A DNA stretch of 64,000 bases from a virus. Taxonomy: Duplodnaviria > Caudoviricetes. The notes under the pieces are model-generated. The model was not told the DNA's origin, searched no databases, and was given only the letters and a program-made list of their open reading frames with translations. Shown piece after piece: positions 47,713 to 59,840 of the stretch; position 1 is the stretch's first letter, and every line of letters begins with the position of its first letter. The position numbers and the translations under genes are program-made. The stretch covers positions 588 to 64,587 of IMG/VR virus record IMGVR_UViG_3300030085_002029, one strand, 5' to 3'.

Positions 47713-47743
47713 ACAAATTAAATACGACTACTTAAAGATAATA
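47713..47743 (+). promoter_or_regulatory. Phage promoter-like motif, copy 2
   Basis: ACAAATTAAATACGACTACTTAAAGATAATA. Confidence 0.75.
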
Positions 47744-47785: not shown

Positions 47786-48025
47786 ATGAAAACTAATAAT
47801 TTAACTACTAAAAGATTTGTAATAAGAAAATCATTAATTGGCGAAAACGCTATCATTACATTCACTAACAAAAAAGGTATTACTTATACTTATGATCATG
47901 ACGAAATATACTCACTATTTCAAGAAAAGTTTGAAAGTATGAATTGCTTTCAAGAGTATAAAAGTTATACTAACTCAAATGTTGTACCAAAATTCTGTAG
48001 AGAATTAGCTACAATTAGTGAGTAG
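47786..48025 (+). CDS. Early hypothetical protein
   Basis: 79 aa downstream of motif copy 2. Confidence 0.6.
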   Translation: MKTNNLTTKRFVIRKSLIGENAIITFTNKKGITYTYDHDEIYSLFQEKFESMNCFQEYKSYTNSNVVPKFCRELATISE

Positions 48026-48030
48026 TAACA

Positions 48031-48077
48031 TGTGACAGTAGCCTGTTACTCTATATAACTAATAGGCTATTGTCATA
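48031..48077. promoter_or_regulatory. Inverted-repeat site, copy 2
   Basis: TGTGACAGTAGCCT-N19-AGGCTATTGTCATA. Confidence 0.65.
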
Positions 48078-48254: not shown

Positions 48255-48285
48255 ACAAACTAAATACGTTCACTCGTAGATAATA
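48255..48285 (+). promoter_or_regulatory. Phage promoter-like motif, copy 3
   Basis: ACAAACTAAATACGTTCACTCGTAGATAATA. Confidence 0.75.
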
Positions 48286-48892: not shown

Positions 48893-48923
48893 ACAATATA
48901 AATACGAACAAGTAAAGATAATA
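48893..48923 (+). promoter_or_regulatory. Phage promoter-like motif, copy 4
   Basis: ACAATATAAATACGAACAAGTAAAGATAATA. Confidence 0.75.
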
Positions 48924-51162: not shown

Positions 51163-51193
51163 ACAAACTAAATACGATCACTAATAGATAATA
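51163..51193 (+). promoter_or_regulatory. Phage promoter-like motif, copy 5
   Basis: ACAAACTAAATACGATCACTAATAGATAATA. Confidence 0.75.
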
Positions 51194-51342: not shown

Positions 51343-51344
51343 AC

Positions 51345-51545
51345 CACGACTTCAACCCACCGTGTCGTAGCGGTGAAGAAGAAAAACAGTGGGGTTGAGT
51401 GACGGCTCAACTTGGACAGCGAGGTCAGGTGATGGAGCAGTTGTAGAAACGCCATCAGACTGTTCTAGACATGAGAGGTTCGACTCCTCTCTCTCGCTCT
51501 AAAATATAGTAGTGGATTGGGGTTGGTTGGAAACAGCTACTATAT
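51345..51545 (+). ncRNA. Structured non-coding region containing a tRNA-like element (51418-51498)
   Basis: GC-rich gap; AGCGAGG/TCTCGCT acceptor-like stem, GAGAGG-TTCGACT-CCTCTC T-arm; no canonical D or anticodon arm; flanking hairpins. Confidence 0.5.
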
Positions 51546-51559
51546 AAAAATTAAATACT

Positions 51560-52230: not shown

Positions 52231-52261
52231 ACAAACTAAATACGAACACTATAAGATAATA
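52231..52261 (+). promoter_or_regulatory. Phage promoter-like motif, copy 6
   Basis: ACAAACTAAATACGAACACTATAAGATAATA. Confidence 0.75.
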
Positions 52262-52854: not shown

Positions 52855-53275
52855 AGAAGGCGAAATACGTCAAGAAAGACTAGTTGAGCTAGTTAAAAAC
52901 CATCTTGGTTTATCTATATCTACTAGCTTAGATGATTGGTCTAATGTGGATTGTAGAGTATACAGTGAATCTACTGCAGACGGTTATGACTTATTTGTTG
53001 TAACTCAGCAAAAAGATCATCCAATTATATGTGAAGATTGTTACCAATATGATCACGATCTTGCTGATGCAGTAAGAGAAGAGATTAGATATGGTGTTGA
53101 AACTTTTTACATTGATATAGATTTATACAACGATTGCTACATGGAAGACATGCTAGTAGAGATGTTTGTAGATTATGTAGAAGATATAATTGAAGATGAA
53201 GACTTAGATATAACACTAGAAGAAATTAACTACTTAAAAGAAGAATATGGCATCACAGAAGAAGTTGAAGACTGA
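52838..53275 (+). CDS. Very acidic early protein
   Basis: 145 aa, Asp/Glu-dense C-terminal half. Confidence 0.6.
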   Translation: MAKYHREGEIRQERLVELVKNHLGLSISTSLDDWSNVDCRVYSESTADGYDLFVVTQQKDHPIICEDCYQYDHDLADAVREEIRYGVETFYIDIDLYNDCYMEDMLVEMFVDYVEDIIEDEDLDITLEEINYLKEEYGITEEVED

Positions 53276-53525
53276 ACAAAAATTACCTAAATGGTTTAAA
53301 GGTATGATATACAAAGAAGGTGAAACAGTAACAAATCCTTTCTCAGGTGAATCATACGAACTAACAGGTGTAGAACTATCATTGTATGACTTTATAATAG
53401 GTTGTCAAATGGTATTTGATTCAGCACCAAGTACTATGACAAATAAACGAATTAATGAATTTCAAAAAGCATTAAACTGGTTTAGGGTGAATAACCCTGA
53501 AGCATACTACGTGTTGTTAGATTAG
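53247..53525 (+). CDS. Early hypothetical protein
   Basis: 92 aa; VTNPFSGES, WFRVNNPEAYYVLLD. Confidence 0.6.
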   Translation: MASQKKLKTEQKLPKWFKGMIYKEGETVTNPFSGESYELTGVELSLYDFIIGCQMVFDSAPSTMTNKRINEFQKALNWFRVNNPEAYYVLLD

Positions 53526-53539
53526 TAGTAGTTTAGTTT

Positions 53540-53847
53540 CCGCGAATAAGCGCGTGAGGTGTGTCGAGACAGTAACCGAACCAGACATAGATGGTAGTGT
53601 CAGTATCTCTTCTTACTCACTTGGCAAGCTCGTACTTAAGATACCTCAGTCATGGCTGTATAGCTATATGAAGCAGGTGACGGTACGGGCTATTCGTGGT
53701 AGCACGGGTATGAGTGTGATACCGTAACTTGACCTAAAAACAAACAAGCGTGCTCACGAAATATATAAGGCGACCAGGCATCCTTTGAGTGCCCATACTT
53801 TCCCTTCGGTGTAAGCCCACAGGTGACGGTATGGGCTTTTCGTGGTA
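53540..53847 (+). ncRNA. Structured RNA with two tandem copies of one fold
   Basis: 28-nt repeat (26/28 identical) at 53674 and 53820; both differences are compensated in the pairing partners. Confidence 0.65.
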
Positions 53848-54035
53848 TGAAAAGATTTATAAAATTTACACTTATATGGATTAGTCAAAATTTATCAATT
53901 CCTTTTTGGATTGTAGGACACGTGCATTTATCTGTGAATATATATAAAGATGTATACGAACTAGCGAGTTCACTAGGTATGAACTTAATAGTTTTGATTG
54001 GTTTTATTATTGATTACAAACAAAATGCAAAATAA
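53847..54035 (+). CDS. Small membrane protein
   Basis: Likely ATG at 53847 (MKRFIKFTLIW...); hydrophobic segments. Confidence 0.5.
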   Translation: MKRFIKFTLIWISQNLSIPFWIVGHVHLSVNIYKDVYELASSLGMNLIVLIGFIIDYKQNAK

Positions 54036-54543
54036 AGTAAAAAATAATTCAACATATGGTGAGGTTACAACAATAGGCAATGTTCAAGTTTTAAGTTATT
54101 TACATCCTCATATTCCAAAAGAAAATGGCAAATTTTTAGATATTGGCTGTGGTTACGGTAAATTAGTTACATATATGGCAGAAAATACTAATATGTATTG
54201 CGCAGGAATAGATATAGATCAAGAAAAAATTAGCATTGCAAATACGATCTTGTGGACAAACCAAGCTGAAAGAATAAAATTTATTTATGGAGATATACAA
54301 GACAACTGGAAACTAGTAGCTGAAGCTGATTTTATATTTATGAACTGCGTAACTTGGGATCCACAACTTGTTTCATCTATTTTTCAAAAATCAAAAGGAA
54401 TAATTATTCACAATCACATTAAAGCGGTTAAACTTAAAAATGGAAAATGGTGGACATACCCAGGTGAACCTGCTCCAGTTATGTGTAGTTGGGAAAAAGA
54501 AGACCAAAAATATTACAAACTAGATAGTAAAATAGTAAAATGA
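54025..54543 (+). CDS. Class I SAM methyltransferase, DOT1-like, copy 1
   Basis: STYGEV, FLDIGCGYGKLV, GIDID, ADFIFMN, CSW; likely start Met at 54025. Confidence 0.75.
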   Translation: MQNKVKNNSTYGEVTTIGNVQVLSYLHPHIPKENGKFLDIGCGYGKLVTYMAENTNMYCAGIDIDQEKISIANTILWTNQAERIKFIYGDIQDNWKLVAEADFIFMNCVTWDPQLVSSIFQKSKGIIIHNHIKAVKLKNGKWWTYPGEPAPVMCSWEKEDQKYYKLDSKIVK

Positions 54544-55034
54544 ATAAAATTGTTAATATATCAACTTATGGTGAAGTAAACACTTTAGGTTATAAAGATG
54601 TTTTAAATGTTATTCCAGAAAAAATAAAAACAGGTAATTTTATAGATATAGGATGTGGATATGGTAAATTAATACAATATATAGCAGAACACACAGAAAT
54701 GAATTGTACAGGTATTGAAATAGACAATGATAAAATAAAAATTGCAAAGAAAATACTTTGGACTAATAGACAAACTAAATCACGAATAAAATTTTTAGCA
54801 GCAGACATACAAGATAACTATAAATTAGTGGAAAATGCTGATTTTATATTCATGAATTCAATATGTTGGAAACCTGAATTAGTAAAAGAAATAATTAAAA
54901 TTTCTAATTGTATAATACTTACTAACTCGGTAACTGCCACTAAACATTTAGATGTAGAAAAAATTAAAGTAAACTGTAGTTGGTCGCTTAAACCTCAAAC
55001 GTTTCACAAACTAAATACGATTACTAATAGATAA
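54540..55034 (+). CDS. Class I SAM methyltransferase, DOT1-like, copy 2 (tandem paralog)
   Basis: STYGEV, FIDIGCGYGKLI, GIEID, ADFIFMN, CSW. Confidence 0.75.
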   Translation: MNKIVNISTYGEVNTLGYKDVLNVIPEKIKTGNFIDIGCGYGKLIQYIAEHTEMNCTGIEIDNDKIKIAKKILWTNRQTKSRIKFLAADIQDNYKLVENADFIFMNSICWKPELVKEIIKISNCIILTNSVTATKHLDVEKIKVNCSWSLKPQTFHKLNTITNR

Positions 55035-55036
55035 TA
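55006..55036 (+). promoter_or_regulatory. Phage promoter-like motif, copy 7
   Basis: ACAAACTAAATACGATTACTAATAGATAATA, overlapping the 3' end of methyltransferase 2. Confidence 0.75.
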
Positions 55037-55041
55037 TAAAT

Positions 55042-55338
55042 ATGGATAAAAAAACAATGAACGAACTAGCTGATCTTATTATAGCTAAGCTAGAATTAAA
55101 ACAACAACAATGGGACGATGAATTTCACAATTCCATTGTAGATATGTACGGTAAAGAAGGACATAAAGAGGCGTTTGTAATGTCTGAAGAAGAAATGCTA
55201 ATCGGTGAATTAGCTAGATTACAAACTATTCTTATGATATATGAAAACAACGAAGAGTATGAAAAAGCTGCAATTGTACTCAGTAAATTAAACGCAGTAA
55301 AATCTAAATTAAGAAAAGGAGATTATGACGATGATTAA
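55042..55338 (+). CDS. Helical protein with a UVR-like C-terminal motif
   Basis: 98 aa; ENNEEYEKAAIV. Confidence 0.5.
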   Translation: MDKKTMNELADLIIAKLELKQQQWDDEFHNSIVDMYGKEGHKEAFVMSEEEMLIGELARLQTILMIYENNEEYEKAAIVLSKLNAVKSKLRKGDYDDD

Positions 55339-56158: not shown

Positions 56159-56389
56159 AAAAGATATATTAAATATAATAAACACTTATCAGAATTATTA
56201 CAATGATTTTGTCAATGTAAATGAAAAAGACTTAAATAATATATATGAGAAAGTTAATATGGAAATTATATAATGATAATATGATCAGTGAAGAAGTTGC
56301 ATTATTATTATTAGAAAAATACTACGAGTAAAATCAGAGATTGCGCGCGCACCTTGGTACACCTCATGCTGGAAACGGTATGAGGTTTC

Positions 56390-56869
56390 GTGGGTATGAA
56401 TATATTTTATTTACACAGAGACCCAGTTAAAGCTGCACAGTATCAATACAACAAACATGTTGTTAAGATGATCTTAGAATCAGCCCAGATGCTGTGTACG
56501 GCGCATCATGAGATCATGGGAGAAGACGCAGATGTACCTTACAAACGCGCACATGTGAATCACCCATCAACTATATGGTGTCGTAGATCAGCTGAAAATT
56601 ACACGTGGTTATATGACCATATGATGGCATTAGGTAAAGAATATACTAAAAGATATGGTAAAACACATATGTCAATTAACAAGTGCGCGCTACCATTGTA
56701 TAGACTACCAGGTGGTTTAGCTTACACAGGCTTTACACAACCACCTCAAGCTATGCCTGACAAATATAAAGATGAATGCAGCATAAAAGCTTATTGGAAC
56801 TATTATATAGGCGAAAAGCATGTTGTTGCAGGTAAAAATGAAAAGATATATGAGACGATACCGAGATGA
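56390..56869 (+). CDS. Pyrimidine-dimer DNA glycosylase (DenV-like)
   Basis: MNIFYL, HVVKMILESAQML, HVNHPSTIW, EYTKRYGKTH, PPQAMPD. Confidence 0.75.
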   Translation: MGMNIFYLHRDPVKAAQYQYNKHVVKMILESAQMLCTAHHEIMGEDADVPYKRAHVNHPSTIWCRRSAENYTWLYDHMMALGKEYTKRYGKTHMSINKCALPLYRLPGGLAYTGFTQPPQAMPDKYKDECSIKAYWNYYIGEKHVVAGKNEKIYETIPR

Positions 56870-57189: not shown

Positions 57190-57805
57190 TAGAGCTATGA
57201 AATACTTAAATGATAACCGCATCGTGTACAGGAAGTATTCAGATGATCAACCAACTCAAGAGTATGAGTGGGGTTGGTACTATGCTGATGGTACTCACGG
57301 GTATTATAGTCTATTTAATAGTGACGCTAAGATCAATACTTTAAGATCTTTAAAATGGCATTTGTTGACTTTATGGTGGTTAAATCCTGACATGGATTTA
57401 GATAAATTTAAGCAACTATCTGAGGTTATTTGTTATAAACCAAATGGTTTTGTAACATTTAACGTAACACCTGATTTATTAAATAAAGTAATACAAGATG
57501 TTTTTATGCAAGATCTTGAACAACCACCTAAAAACAAACTACGTAAAGTAGTATTTAAAGATGGAACAGGATTAGATAAAAAACAAAAACTTAGTATTGT
57601 AGGACAATTAATAGGTAGAAAAAGTATAGTTGATGAAGAAGCTATATATCAATATATGTTAAATTTAAACGATATTGGTGAAAATATTACTATTAATAAA
57701 CTAGCTAAATACTTTAAATGTTCAAGTAGAACAATACATAGAAATATGAGCGATGAGCTAAGAAAAGAAAAAGATCTTTTAAATATAGAAAATGAAAAAA
57801 TATAA
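57182..57805 (+). CDS. DNA-binding protein with a C-terminal HTH
   Basis: ITINKLAKYFKCSSRTIHRNM; likely ATG at 57182. Confidence 0.6.
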   Translation: MSYRAMKYLNDNRIVYRKYSDDQPTQEYEWGWYYADGTHGYYSLFNSDAKINTLRSLKWHLLTLWWLNPDMDLDKFKQLSEVICYKPNGFVTFNVTPDLLNKVIQDVFMQDLEQPPKNKLRKVVFKDGTGLDKKQKLSIVGQLIGRKSIVDEEAIYQYMLNLNDIGENITINKLAKYFKCSSRTIHRNMSDELRKEKDLLNIENEKI

Positions 57806-58541
57806 TGTAAAAAACTATATTAGATATAAAGAAGATGTTAAGCTAGCTATTGCAGCTATACCAATTAAAAACTTTATAGATTATACACCTAGCGAACTTA
57901 AAGTTATATTTTTACCATTAGTTGAGAATATAGGTAGAAAGTTTGCTACTAGTCAAGAAGCTTCAGGTGTTATGTCAATTATGGATATAATACAAGAAGG
58001 TAGTTTGCAACTATGTAAAGCTGTAGATAAAATAGATAGAGAAAAATTATTTGTATCTGAAGATATAGAAAAAACATTAAAGTCTTTTTTAGCAAAAAGA
58101 ATACGTGGTGGAATACGTAGAGCTATTGACACTAACAGAGGTACAATGCGTATACCTGAACATAGGCTTAATGAAATGCGTAGTACTAAAGATGAGAAAA
58201 TGGTTAGAATGTTTTTTAATTCTATATTTTTATCTTATGACGCGAAACAAGATGATGAAGATATGGTTTATCAAATACCTGATAAATCAGATCCTTATAA
58301 TGAAACTTTATTAAATGCTTATTTAATGAGTTTATTAAACAAACATCTTGAATGGAACGAAACATTTGTACTGAGCAAAAGTTATGGATTAGACGGACCT
58401 AAGTGGTCTGCTAATGAAATAGCAACAGCTTTAGAGATAAAAGGTGTGTCAGCTTATGTACGAGTTTCAGAGTTAAAAAAACAAGCTGTAGAGAAATTAA
58501 TAGCCAACGTGGATCACTCACAAGTACTTGATTATCTGTGA
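57792..58541 (+). CDS. Sigma70-family RNA polymerase sigma factor
   Basis: LPLVENIGRKF, DIIQEGSLQLCKAVDK, IRGGIRRAI, MRIP, region 4 SYGL...EIA. Confidence 0.8.
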   Translation: MKKYNVKNYIRYKEDVKLAIAAIPIKNFIDYTPSELKVIFLPLVENIGRKFATSQEASGVMSIMDIIQEGSLQLCKAVDKIDREKLFVSEDIEKTLKSFLAKRIRGGIRRAIDTNRGTMRIPEHRLNEMRSTKDEKMVRMFFNSIFLSYDAKQDDEDMVYQIPDKSDPYNETLLNAYLMSLLNKHLEWNETFVLSKSYGLDGPKWSANEIATALEIKGVSAYVRVSELKKQAVEKLIANVDHSQVLDYL

Positions 58542-58584: not shown

Positions 58585-59112
58585 ATGACAATTAACGAAA
58601 AATTATCAAAAATCCAAGTAGAGTTTAAATCAAAGAAAAGTAGATTTAACTCATTCGGTAAGTACTACTTCAGGTCTGCCGAAGATATTCTCGAAGCAAC
58701 AAAACCCTTTTTAAAGGAGCTTAATGTAACAGTTACAGTACACGAGGAACTAGTATCTTTTGACCCGCCAGTTATGCAGGTTACTGCAAAAGTGTCTGAC
58801 GGTAAAGATAGTATAGAATCCAAAGCTGTAGTAGGCGTTGATCTTGAACAAAAGGGTATGCAAATGCCACAGAAATATGGTGCTGCAAGTTCATACGGTA
58901 AAAAGTATGCACTTGGTAATCTGTTCTTGATTGATGACACTCAAGATTCAGATGCAACTAACACACATGGTAAATCATCTGCCAAGCAAAAGATGACAAA
59001 CGAATCGTTAGCTAAAGCTAAGGAGTACATCGCAAAAGGCGGTAGTCTAAACGCTATTAAAGCTAAATACGAAGTAACACCTAAGCAAGCTGAATTATTA
59101 ACCACACTATGA
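58585..59112 (+). CDS. ERF-family single-strand annealing protein
   Basis: FNSFGKYYFRSAEDI, GAASSYGKKYALGNLFLIDDTQDSD. Confidence 0.85.
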   Translation: MTINEKLSKIQVEFKSKKSRFNSFGKYYFRSAEDILEATKPFLKELNVTVTVHEELVSFDPPVMQVTAKVSDGKDSIESKAVVGVDLEQKGMQMPQKYGAASSYGKKYALGNLFLIDDTQDSDATNTHGKSSAKQKMTNESLAKAKEYIAKGGSLNAIKAKYEVTPKQAELLTTL

Positions 59113-59840
59113 AACGTGAAGAAATAATAGAAAAGCTTAGAATAGATGAGCATTATTACGGCGACTTTGGCAAACAGTATTTAAGTAATTCAGATATTAA
59201 AACATTACTTACAAACCCATTAGCATTTAAGGAACCAAGTAAGACAAATGCCCACTTCTTAGTAGGAGGCTATTTTCACACTGCGATACTTGAGCCTGAT
59301 AAAATAAAAAAATATAAAATTATAGATTCAAGTTCTAGAAATACGAAAGTATACAAAGAAATGTCAGGTGGTGAAATGTGCTTGTTACAACATGAGGTTG
59401 ACTTAATTGATAATCTCATTTCTACAATGTTAAACAATAAAGTTTGCAGAGACTTGATAGCTGAAGAAAAAGGCGAATATGAGGTACCTGCAATAACTGA
59501 GCTGTTTGGCCAAATGTGGAAAGGTAAAGCAGACGTTGTTAACCACAACGAAAAATTAATAATAGATCTTAAAACTACTTCTGATCTTGACAACTTTAAA
59601 TGGAATGCTAAGAAATATAATTATGATTCTCAAGCTTACATTTATAGAAAACTATTTGGCTATGAATTTGTATTTATAGCTATAGATAAAAAATCAGGTC
59701 AAATAGGTTTGTTCGATTGTTCTGATAAATTTTATAATTCAGGAGAAGAGAAAGTTGAAAAAGCATCAGAAGCTTATGATCTATTTTATAACACAGAGGG
59801 TTTTGATCCTCAGCAATATTTTATAAATCAAACATTATAA
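59109..59840 (+). CDS. PD-(D/E)XK exonuclease (RecE/Cas4-like)
   Basis: LSNSDIK, GGYFHTAILEP, KGKAD, IDLKTT, YDSQAYIY. Confidence 0.85.
   Translation: MKREEIIEKLRIDEHYYGDFGKQYLSNSDIKTLLTNPLAFKEPSKTNAHFLVGGYFHTAILEPDKIKKYKIIDSSSRNTKVYKEMSGGEMCLLQHEVDLIDNLISTMLNNKVCRDLIAEEKGEYEVPAITELFGQMWKGKADVVNHNEKLIIDLKTTSDLDNFKWNAKKYNYDSQAYIYRKLFGYEFVFIAIDKKSGQIGLFDCSDKFYNSGEEKVEKASEAYDLFYNTEGFDPQQYFINQTL

Follow-up and report, generated by a model that had tools for sequence, protein, structure and literature searches.

A many-copy family of RNA hairpins before accessory genes of marine flavobacterial phages: a tandem cassette as a possible expression gate and recombination linker

The locus and its features

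The window, i.e. the whole stretch of 64,000 nucleotides analysed here, comprises bases 588-64587 of a 64,587-bp virus record that is rated complete. From about 47.7 kb on, its + strand carries small and tightly packed genes. Between the stop of the ORF at 53247-53525 and the ATG at 53847 lies a gap of 321 nt, which holds an element of about 310 nt. The G+C content of the gap is 0.45 versus about 0.30 in its surroundings, in agreement with a preliminary description of the locus. A 28-mer is present in two copies (53674-53701 and 53820-53847; identity 93%, spacing 146 nt) and represents the 3' half of a hairpin core with two nested stems, P1 and P2. In the first copy of the core (unit 1), stem P1a is formed by CCGCGAATA (53540-53548) and TATTCGTGG (53691-53699), and stem P2a by GCTCGTAC (53628-53635) and GTACGGGC (53683-53690). 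In the second copy (unit 2), TCACGAAA (53754-53761) pairs with TTTCGTGG (53838-53845) in P1b, and GCCCATAC (53791-53798) with GTATGGGC (53829-53836) in P2b. The stem AGCACG (53701-53706) / CGTGCT (53749-53754) is located between the units, and 53847 is the A of the next ATG. The repeat, the stems, the linker stem and this A are all found where the preliminary description had placed them. Its statement that both differences between the 28-mers are compensated in the partner strands holds as well: position Y corresponds to G-C versus A-U in P2, and position W to U-A versus A-U at the inner end of P1. The features of the region are:

53526-53539, + strand: conserved 5' flank TAGTAGTTTAGTTT (stop codons and a U/G-rich run), between the stop of the gene at 53247-53525 and P1
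53540-53699, + strand: unit 1, long form; P1a 53540-53548 / 53691-53699, followed by TAG and not by ATG
53627-53635 / 53683-53691, + strand: P2a of unit 1 in its longer form, AGCTCGTAC / GTACGGGCT
53549-53626 and 53636-53682, + strand: 5' insert and apical insert of unit 1
53701-53754, + strand: module M, the "linker" of the preliminary description; outer stem 53701-53706 / 53749-53754
53707-53711 / 53719-53723 (loop GAGTGTG) and 53728-53731 / 53745-53748, + strand: hairpins of module M
53754-53846, + strand: unit 2; P1b 53754-53761 / 53838-53845, P2b 53791-53798 / 53829-53836
53762-53790 and 53799-53828, + strand: 5' insert and apical branch of unit 2, the latter with hairpin GGTGTAAGCC at 53808-53817
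53847-54035, + strand: small membrane-protein gene from the ORF listing; ATG 1 nt past P1b
55013-55035, + strand: promoter-like 23-mer that closes the variable slot, one of six matches
56322-56395, + strand: third, divergent copy; candidate 5' strand of P1 CTACGAG at 56322-56328, overlapping the last codons of the upstream ORF
56361-56370 / 56377-56386, + strand: P2 of the third copy, ACCTCATGCT / GGTATGAGGT
directly behind, + strand: tail of the third copy, TTCGTGGG, then T, then ATG 56396 of a DenV-like gene (Pfam Pyr_excise match)

By two models of the core, R1 and R2, the window contains three core copies in total, namely the tandem pair and a third copy about 2.5 kb downstream. Unit 1 scores 42.9 bits with R1 (53625-53702) and has no gene behind it; its type of 5' insert is also present in the relatives L005, L088, L169 and L347 (loci of relatives carry L numbers), where it is combined with other apical inserts. 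Unit 2 scores 29.9 bits with R1 and 20.5 bits with R2 (E 0.004). It shares its 5' insert with L050, L075, L021 and L051, and its apical branch with L001-L004 and L050. Homologues of the membrane protein in L005 and L235 likewise begin right behind a hairpin. The third copy scores 13.4 bits with R1 and 18.0 bits with R2 (E 0.02, model match 56358-56398). In L235 the same gene is preceded by a homologous copy, L088, L021 and L051 have one in the corresponding position, and P1 of the third copy overlaps the upstream stop codon. The short motif CAGGTGAYGG has 4 matches in the window versus 0.04 expected. Of the 95 stretches matching the 15-mer of the flank TAGTAGTTTAGTTT, 23 have this flank, downstream of two different genes, and the remaining 72 are unrelated sequence. 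The mechanical ORFs at 53554-53727 (+ strand) and 53754-53888 (- strand) were rejected as genes, as they span inserts that are wholly absent from relatives.

A family of hairpins in marine flavobacterial phages

An exact scan of IMG/VR with the 28-mer returned five contigs; on each, a single unit is framed by the flank and an immediately following ATG. Three further IMG/VR scans were performed, one with the flank and two with the 3' strand. The matches listed for the first 3'-strand scan were mostly an unrelated G+C-rich coding sequence, and 24 of the 42 new loci from the second are family members. A metagenome scan with a pattern requiring TATG yielded at least 116 stretches. At least 185 distinct instances on marine viral and metagenome contigs could be parsed, 174 of them with at least three P2 pairs beyond GCYC/GGGC; most were fished with the 3' strand as bait, and hence the conservation of this strand is partly given by construction.

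The constant core consists of P1 (CCACG/CGUGG, often CCACGAA/UUCGUGG), a U-rich internal loop, P2 (AGCUCGUAC/GUACGGGCU) and then UA, which is usually followed by the UG of an ATG. In its minimal form of 46 nt (L025, L038), the apical loop is UCAAAAG. The apical loop is shorter than 10 nt in 140 of the 185 instances listed. Larger forms are extended by structured inserts, for which there are two fixed sites: one separates the 5' strands of P1 and P2, the other is the apex of P2. The loops tolerate inserts of 10-180 nt. In L069 and L222, P2 is lengthened into a hairpin of about 30 bp. The motif CAGGTGACG is confined to some of the apical inserts. It was rejected both as a core motif and as a working Shine-Dalgarno sequence, being present in some inserts only and able to pair with UCCCUU of the same branch. 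A Shine-Dalgarno role is further disfavoured because hosts of this type ignore such sequences, according to passages of PMC6847099.

The element belongs to a previously undescribed, many-copy family of folded RNA hairpins before accessory genes in marine flavobacterial phages. Full-text searches of the literature returned no description of the hairpin cassette. Among 50,697 records of deposited phages, blastn detected no match to the region or to the minimal unit; at this sensitivity deposited phages are without the element, and therefore no cultured system is at hand. No bacterial chromosome was found to carry the motif. In 185,579 species genomes there are 6 exact 19-mer matches, of which four are phage-like contigs of 627-2018 bp binned into MAGs of four phyla and two are chance matches in G+C-rich genes.

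Rfam 15 was searched over the window without a match at the gathering threshold. At E ≤10, only SNORA75 (16.9 bits, cut-off 80) and Corona_FSE (14.3 bits, cut-off 46) appear between 53400 and 54000, neither of which is meaningful. Over the loci of 12 relatives, the sole Rfam match is one tRNA located elsewhere, and ARAGORN predicts no tRNA or tmRNA gene in the window. The preliminary description, whose author did not recognise the family, is borne out in this respect.

Comparative evidence for the fold

The gap region has a minimum free energy of -99.5 kcal/mol (z = -1.04), and 17 of 100 shuffles fold equally well; the minimum-energy fold reproduces unit 2 and misses P1 of unit 1. As the folding energy is no better than that of shuffles, the support for the structure is comparative.

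Model R1, which covers P2 plus the tail, gave 73 matches at E ≤0.05 in 50 sources. In the resulting alignment, which is fitted to the model, 60 distinct rows show 97.4% of 570 P2 cells paired and double-sided changes in 6 of 10 pairs. None of 500 shuffles matched the alignment in any of five measures, and shifting the partner strand of P2 lowers pairing to 27-49%. An unfitted MAFFT alignment of P1 and P2 from 11 minimal forms is paired in 98.2% of cells, and 7 of its 15 pairs have changes on both sides. Six of these are among the 10 pairs of P2 and one is among the 5 pairs of P1, where three more pairs vary on one side, always compatibly. At position 5 of P2, the 174 listed instances have G-C (110), A-U (62), G-U (1), C-G (1) and no A-C, although the independent events behind these counts may be few.

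P1 variants with a matched partner strand include CTACGAA/TTCGTAG (L088, L021, L051), CTGCC/GGTGG (L163, L190, L233) and CTACAT/GTGTGG (L207, L215). Tested per instance against shuffled tails, P1 reaches ≤5% in 11 of 67 cases and is mostly not significant. Alignment A7 (model R2) was left out of the P1 counts, because R2 picks local pseudo-P1 strands where inserts are present. Judged from these alignments, both P1 and P2 covary, P1 weakly when taken alone. A U-G pair is retained in 58 of the 60 distinct rows, where the other strand would have C-A. This indicates that the fold belongs to the sense strand, most simply as RNA. The preliminary description of a tandem structured RNA with compensatory changes, located immediately ahead of a start codon, is supported by these results, which also place the structure on the sense strand.

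Module M and mosaicism

The preliminary description had placed a linker hairpin between the units. Its AGCACG/CGTGCT stem is real, but it turns out to be the outer stem of a three-helix module, termed module M. Seven copies of module M from two clades (the window, L244, L235, L004, L087, L090 and L206) were aligned. They comprise 15 pairs in three helices with 98.1% of cells paired, and 6 pairs show double-sided change. The covariation score was equalled by none of 500 shuffles and the count of double changes by 11 of 500; the number of further pair types was equalled by 468 of 500 and gives no support. Module M is located between tandem cores in the window, L244, L277, L284, L302 and L347. 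In other relatives it occupies the internal loop between P1 and P2 (L235, L087), precedes P1 (L004) or lies directly past a stop codon (L090, L206).

Other parts have moved in a similar manner. The 5' insert of unit 2 is found at another genomic site in L021 and L051. The apical insert of unit 1 of the window sits in unit 2 of L347, while unit 1 of L347 has the 5' insert of the window. One hairpin insert is apical in L069 and L222 and internal in L090. Among the instances listed there are 10 pairs of tandem cores in 9 loci, with module M after 6 of the first units, and at least two copies of the core are present in 26 of the 158 locus-strands listed. Slots between conserved flanks are empty or filled with different genes across relatives. 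The phage encodes an ERF and PDDEXK recombination pair.

In contigs from four RNA libraries, relatives of the element occur in which the order of the modules differs: one joint skips 214 nt, another skips 146 nt, and two step back by 161 and 163 nt. One contig of 929 nt runs from an upstream gene through the element into a downstream gene. These contigs have a depth of 2-9, derive from relatives, do not display ends or strand, and may include DNA carry-over; they hint weakly at sense-strand read-through and support mosaicism well. Stretches that they leave uncovered, 54200-54500 among them, carry no information.

Genomic context and start sites

The large terminase of the phage matches 87 records, among them phages of Flavobacterium (68), Cellulophaga (15), Tenacibaculum (2) and Maribacter (1); the closest match is an uncultured Caudoviricetes record with 63% identity. 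From this kinship, the host is probably a member of the Flavobacteriaceae. The phage is seen in marine metagenomes of several studies.

The promoter-like 23-mer AAATACGnnnACTnnnAGATAAT has six + strand matches between 47.7 and 55.0 kb versus 0.60 expected. In relatives, the slot is ordered as hairpin, no or one small gene, 23-mer and conserved gene. The last of these corresponds to the window ORF at 55042-55338, which has 39% identity (E 2e-17) to its counterpart in L003. In "empty" slots (L046, L088, L169, L221, L236) the hairpin is directly followed by the 23-mer. The slot of the window contains unit 1, module M, unit 2, the membrane-protein gene and two genes for SAM-dependent methyltransferases. 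At a fourth place, 51343-51559 ("site 2"), relatives have a hairpin unit and the window has a different, structured and tRNA-like stretch of 217 nt.

An ATG directly follows the UA of the core in 143 of the 185 instances listed, a share that is inflated by the TATG required in the metagenome pattern. The 132 proteins of at least 25 aa that start at adjoining ATGs in the instances listed fall into 15 unrelated families. Elsewhere, the core abuts the repeated promoter-like 23-mer instead of an ATG. In the divergent relatives L163, L207, L209, L219, L225 and L231, the core is followed by UAGA or UAGG, and the ATG is located 20-35 nt past the hairpin.

The two start codons behind a core, 53847 and 56396, have an atypical context. 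Positions -20 to -1 have A fractions of 0.05 and 0.10, a GC fraction of 0.55 and local minimum free energies of -12.1 and -20.9. The other 35 of 37 crudely called spaced starts show means of 0.50 for A, 0.18 for GC and -4.0 (sd 3.8) for the energy. None of these leaders in the window contains a Shine-Dalgarno sequence. Passages of PMC6847099 describe Bacteroidetes mRNAs as lacking such sequences and their initiation as tuned by mRNA structure, and the leaders of the window fit this statement.

Relation to known systems

As passages of PMC2839356 and PMC4122927 describe them, the PeSL (promoter-early stem-loop) cassettes of T4-type phages are conserved intergenic units of promoter and stem-loop that insulate and shuffle small genes. 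In anatomy and context, they are the closest known kind. Measured against these passages, the likeness includes many copies in a variable early region, mostly before small genes without assigned function; a stem-loop with G-T pairs; a position at points of gene insertion, deletion and replacement; and a reading as expression insulators plus recombination linkers. In contrast to PeSL, the present element is without an internal promoter of sigma-70 type, and the slot is closed on its other side by a promoter-like 23-mer that is separate from the hairpin. It further differs by its two nested covarying stems, by structured inserts of up to about 180 nt that swap at two fixed points, and by a start codon that abuts the helix without a Shine-Dalgarno sequence. 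The phage is a marine podophage related to phages of Flavobacterium, Cellulophaga and Tenacibaculum, and the window has three copies versus about 50 per genome given for phi1 and RB49 in a passage of PMC2839356. A sigma-70 scan of the window found 69 sites versus 62.1 in shuffles and none in the element; the host type uses another promoter consensus than sigma-70.

Solitary CRISPR-repeat-like units in phages are RNA anti-CRISPRs, which the present hairpin resembles as a short unit repeated a few times per phage genome with unrelated sequence between. A CRISPR-repeat mimic was rejected because no bacterial array among the 185,579 species genomes carries the motif; no Rfam CRISPR-DR model matches the element either.

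Proposed function and alternatives

We tentatively read the tandem cassette as an intercistronic gate or insulator that doubles as a recombination linker. This reading draws on the PeSL-like anatomy and context, the nested covarying stems, the swappable inserts and the helix that ends at a start without a Shine-Dalgarno sequence, and from these we infer gating, attenuation and the recombination mechanism. The core would fold in the sense transcript of the early region of the phage, with its 3' strand extending to 1 nt before the next start codon. If the host initiates translation on unstructured, A-rich leaders without Shine-Dalgarno sequences, the folded core would bury positions -1 to about -22 and thereby gate or damp translation of the downstream accessory gene. 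An additional effect may be attenuation of read-through transcription, and the gate might be opened by unwinding or by endonucleolytic cleavage. As copies of the core are present at several sites of one genome and also in relatives, its 40-50 nt may also act as a patch of homology at which cargo genes and optional structured inserts are swapped, and the tandem form of the window would be one such recombination product. The ATG positions 20-35 nt past the hairpin in divergent relatives indicate that burial of the start codon is not the whole story. Translational coupling through an upstream ribosome could operate at the third copy but not at unit 2, where 229 nt separate P1 from the stop.

The main rival, or possibly a complement that overlaps with the gate, is a processing signal at which an endoribonuclease such as RNase III cuts in or beside the U-rich internal loop. 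We consider it rather unlikely as the primary role. By such cuts the upstream RNA would keep a protective 3' hairpin, the downstream start would be freed, and, in tandem arrays, module M and other segments lying between cores would come free as small structured RNAs. T7 early mRNA has RNase III processing hairpins between its genes, and the present element is similar in being intergenic, in having two stems and an internal loop, and in being repeated several times within one podophage genome, at sites that resemble one another and lie just before the next gene. It differs by a shorter P1, by branches at the internal loop and by a host from the Bacteroidota with another mode of translation initiation, and the resemblance is one of two-stem-plus-loop anatomy alone. 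The two coaxial stems with sequence conservation centred on the conserved U-rich loop would suit a nuclease site. So would the near-continuous 3' strand of P1 and P2 (16-18 bp) in units with a 5' insert, the extension of P2 to about 30 bp in L069 and L222, the recurrence in 6 loci of tandem arrays with a conserved module between the cores, and the tRNA-like fold, another classical processing signal, that the window holds at site 2 where relatives have the hairpin. However, RNase III needs about 20 bp, for which the P1 of 5 bp in the minimal form is short, and no cleavage ends are known; the RNA-library contigs cannot display ends. A plain intrinsic terminator or attenuator that ends the early transcription unit, with the downstream P1 strand being incidental, is clearly unlikely. 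A G+C-rich stem followed by UUU(U), a position just past a stop codon and the promoter-like 23-mer directly after the hairpin in empty slots would agree with it, as would the effective termination by PeSL stem-loops reported in a passage of PMC2839356. Yet a consensus scan (G+C-rich stem, short loop and at least 5 T in the 8 bases past the stem) flags neither the units of the window nor the minimal hairpins of L038 (373-410, 2495-2532), as only 4 of these 8 bases are T. Moreover, the U-run and the bases that follow it are engaged in P1, with compensating changes in the partner strand, genes begin 1 nt past the element without a promoter motif of their own, and RNA-library contigs traverse the element. 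The silence of the scan even on minimal hairpins and the covariation of P1 beyond the U-run disfavour this explanation.

Phages also use translational repressors, such as the MS2 coat protein and T4 RegA. The core could accordingly be imagined as an operator for an RNA-binding protein of phage or host that represses or activates an early accessory regulon; we regard this as improbable. Sequence conservation covers lower P2, the loop and P1 but not the variable apex, and several copies per genome stand at a fixed spacing to the ATG before 15 gene families, as an operator would require. On the other hand, conservation of the 3' strand is in part an effect of the bait, copies without a gene behind them exist (unit 1, empty slots), and no candidate protein was identified. 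An element acting at the DNA level, i.e. an N4-type hairpin promoter, a recombinase site or an origin, is very improbable. The N4 virion RNA polymerase uses hairpin promoters, and the phage has a 3432-aa ORF of unassigned nature; TAGAT after some copies resembles the 3' end of the promoter-like 23-mer, and the mosaicism could reflect site-specific exchange. But on the template strand A-C would take the place of the conserved U-G pairs, the loops take 10-180 nt of insert, no integrase or recombinase is encoded beside the sites, and Pfam and PDB sequence searches with the 3432-aa ORF yielded no match to RNA polymerases; the sole PHROG match of this ORF is a weak one to polynucleotide kinase. The N4-type DNA hairpin promoter in particular was rejected because of strand asymmetry and loop tolerance. 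Least probable by far is the tandem riboswitch-like leader or pair of self-cleaving ribozymes considered in the preliminary description. As in tandem riboswitches and cis-regulatory leaders of Rfam, tandem structured units lie in the 5' leader directly before a gene, genes for SAM-dependent methyltransferases follow, and in the apical branch of unit 2 the junction strands are conserved and AGCCCA (53814-53819) could alternatively pair with the 3' strand of P2. Against this, the repeated 28-mer is the 3' strand of a generic two-stem hairpin, and the part common to all copies is a hairpin of only 46 nt without a conserved pocket. The branch with CAGGTGACG is optional, as the short apical loops of most listed instances illustrate, and the 15 unrelated families downstream share no single pathway. 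No Rfam model matches, all curated ribozymes and riboswitches included, and no model of a self-cleaving ribozyme scores at E ≤10. Optional and shuffled branches together with unrelated cargo thus disfavour both the riboswitch and the ribozyme. Most likely, the element has its role in gating and swapping accessory genes rather than in sensing a small molecule.

Independent of these alternatives, the analysis adds an abundant and well-supported structured RNA family that Rfam and deposited phage genomes lack. With the reading as gate and recombination linker, PeSL-like "linker" cassettes would exist outside T4-type phages in the form of a more elaborate, modular RNA. In hosts that ignore Shine-Dalgarno sequences, the stable helix ending 1 nt before many AUGs may offer a way to study how genes are turned on. 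A core that turned out to be a portable gate or processing signal would be of use in the engineering of Bacteroidota and their phages, and the cassette would aid the annotation of accessory-gene slots in marine viromes.

A simple gate leaves the structured, covarying inserts unexplained. A speculative combination, to which we assign a low probability, is that the cores punctuate and gate an RNA "cassette array" of the phage: cuts of the early polycistronic RNA at each core would free buried starts without Shine-Dalgarno sequences and release the modules between and within cores as small structured RNAs that have their own functions, for instance as decoys or protein sponges. Neighbouring units also have P1-like stems (CCGCG/CGUGG, GCACG/CGUGC and UCACG/CGUGG) that could re-pair with each other as a conformational switch. 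If true, gene expression and the production of small RNAs would be organised in a novel manner in Bacteroidota phages.

Small features of the hairpin element, and an unrelated intergenic hairpin

The element, a multi-copy intergenic two-stem RNA hairpin before accessory genes, has, among its copies in the window, two tandem units separated by module M, a stretch of three helices at 53701-53754.

53711-53728, + strand: mini-ORF of 5 codons (ATG AGT GTG ATR YYG TAA) within module M
48031-48077, + strand: inverted repeat of 12 bp, TGACAGTAGCCT ... AGGCTATTGTCA, directly 3' of ORF 47786-48025

The frame of the mini-ORF is preserved in all seven aligned copies of module M. This conservation may be due to chance, because the same bases form a covarying hairpin. 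In unit 2, the second tandem copy, AGCCCA of the apical branch (53814-53819) can alternatively pair with 53832-53837 in the 3' strand of P2, and this pairing is weaker or absent where the apical hairpin differs (contigs L002 and L169). The intergenic hairpin at 48031-48077 is unrelated in sequence to the hairpin family.

Promoter-like repeats

The promoter-like 23-mer AAATACGnnnACTnnnAGATAAT, whose copy at 55013-55035 closes the variable gene slot on the side opposite the hairpin, has 6 matches in the window versus 0.60 expected, with ATGs standing 10-20 nt downstream of its copies.

47720-47742, 48262-48284, 48900-48922, 51170-51192, 52238-52260, 55013-55035, + strand: motif matches

This repeat resembles T7-type promoters. 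The scanned ORFs of the phage yielded no single-subunit RNA polymerase.

A further, possibly structured gap

51343-51559, + strand: G+C-richer gap of 217 nt, site of a hairpin unit in relatives

The gap opens with CCACGA, contains a tRNA-like T-arm and folds with z = -2.06. ARAGORN made no call on it, and the sole Rfam match was tRNA-Sec at 13.6 bits. It may represent another structured or processing element.

Element-bearing contigs in MAGs

Four contigs bearing the element (L249, L251, L252 and L253; 627-2018 bp) are each binned in a MAG, with the labels Bacteroidetes, Gammaproteobacteria, Chloroflexota and Arcobacter. Most likely these are mis-binned phage fragments.

Other phage genes

3220-13518, - strand: ORF of 3432 aa
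43205-44752, - strand: GroEL-like chaperonin
54025-55034, + strand: two tandem, paralogous SAM methyltransferases
57792-58541, + strand: sigma-factor-like protein
58585-59840, + strand: ERF recombinase and PDDEXK protein

The 3432-aa ORF is without a match in Pfam and without a sequence match in the PDB; its sole match is a weak one to a PHROG polynucleotide kinase at residues 2459-2631.
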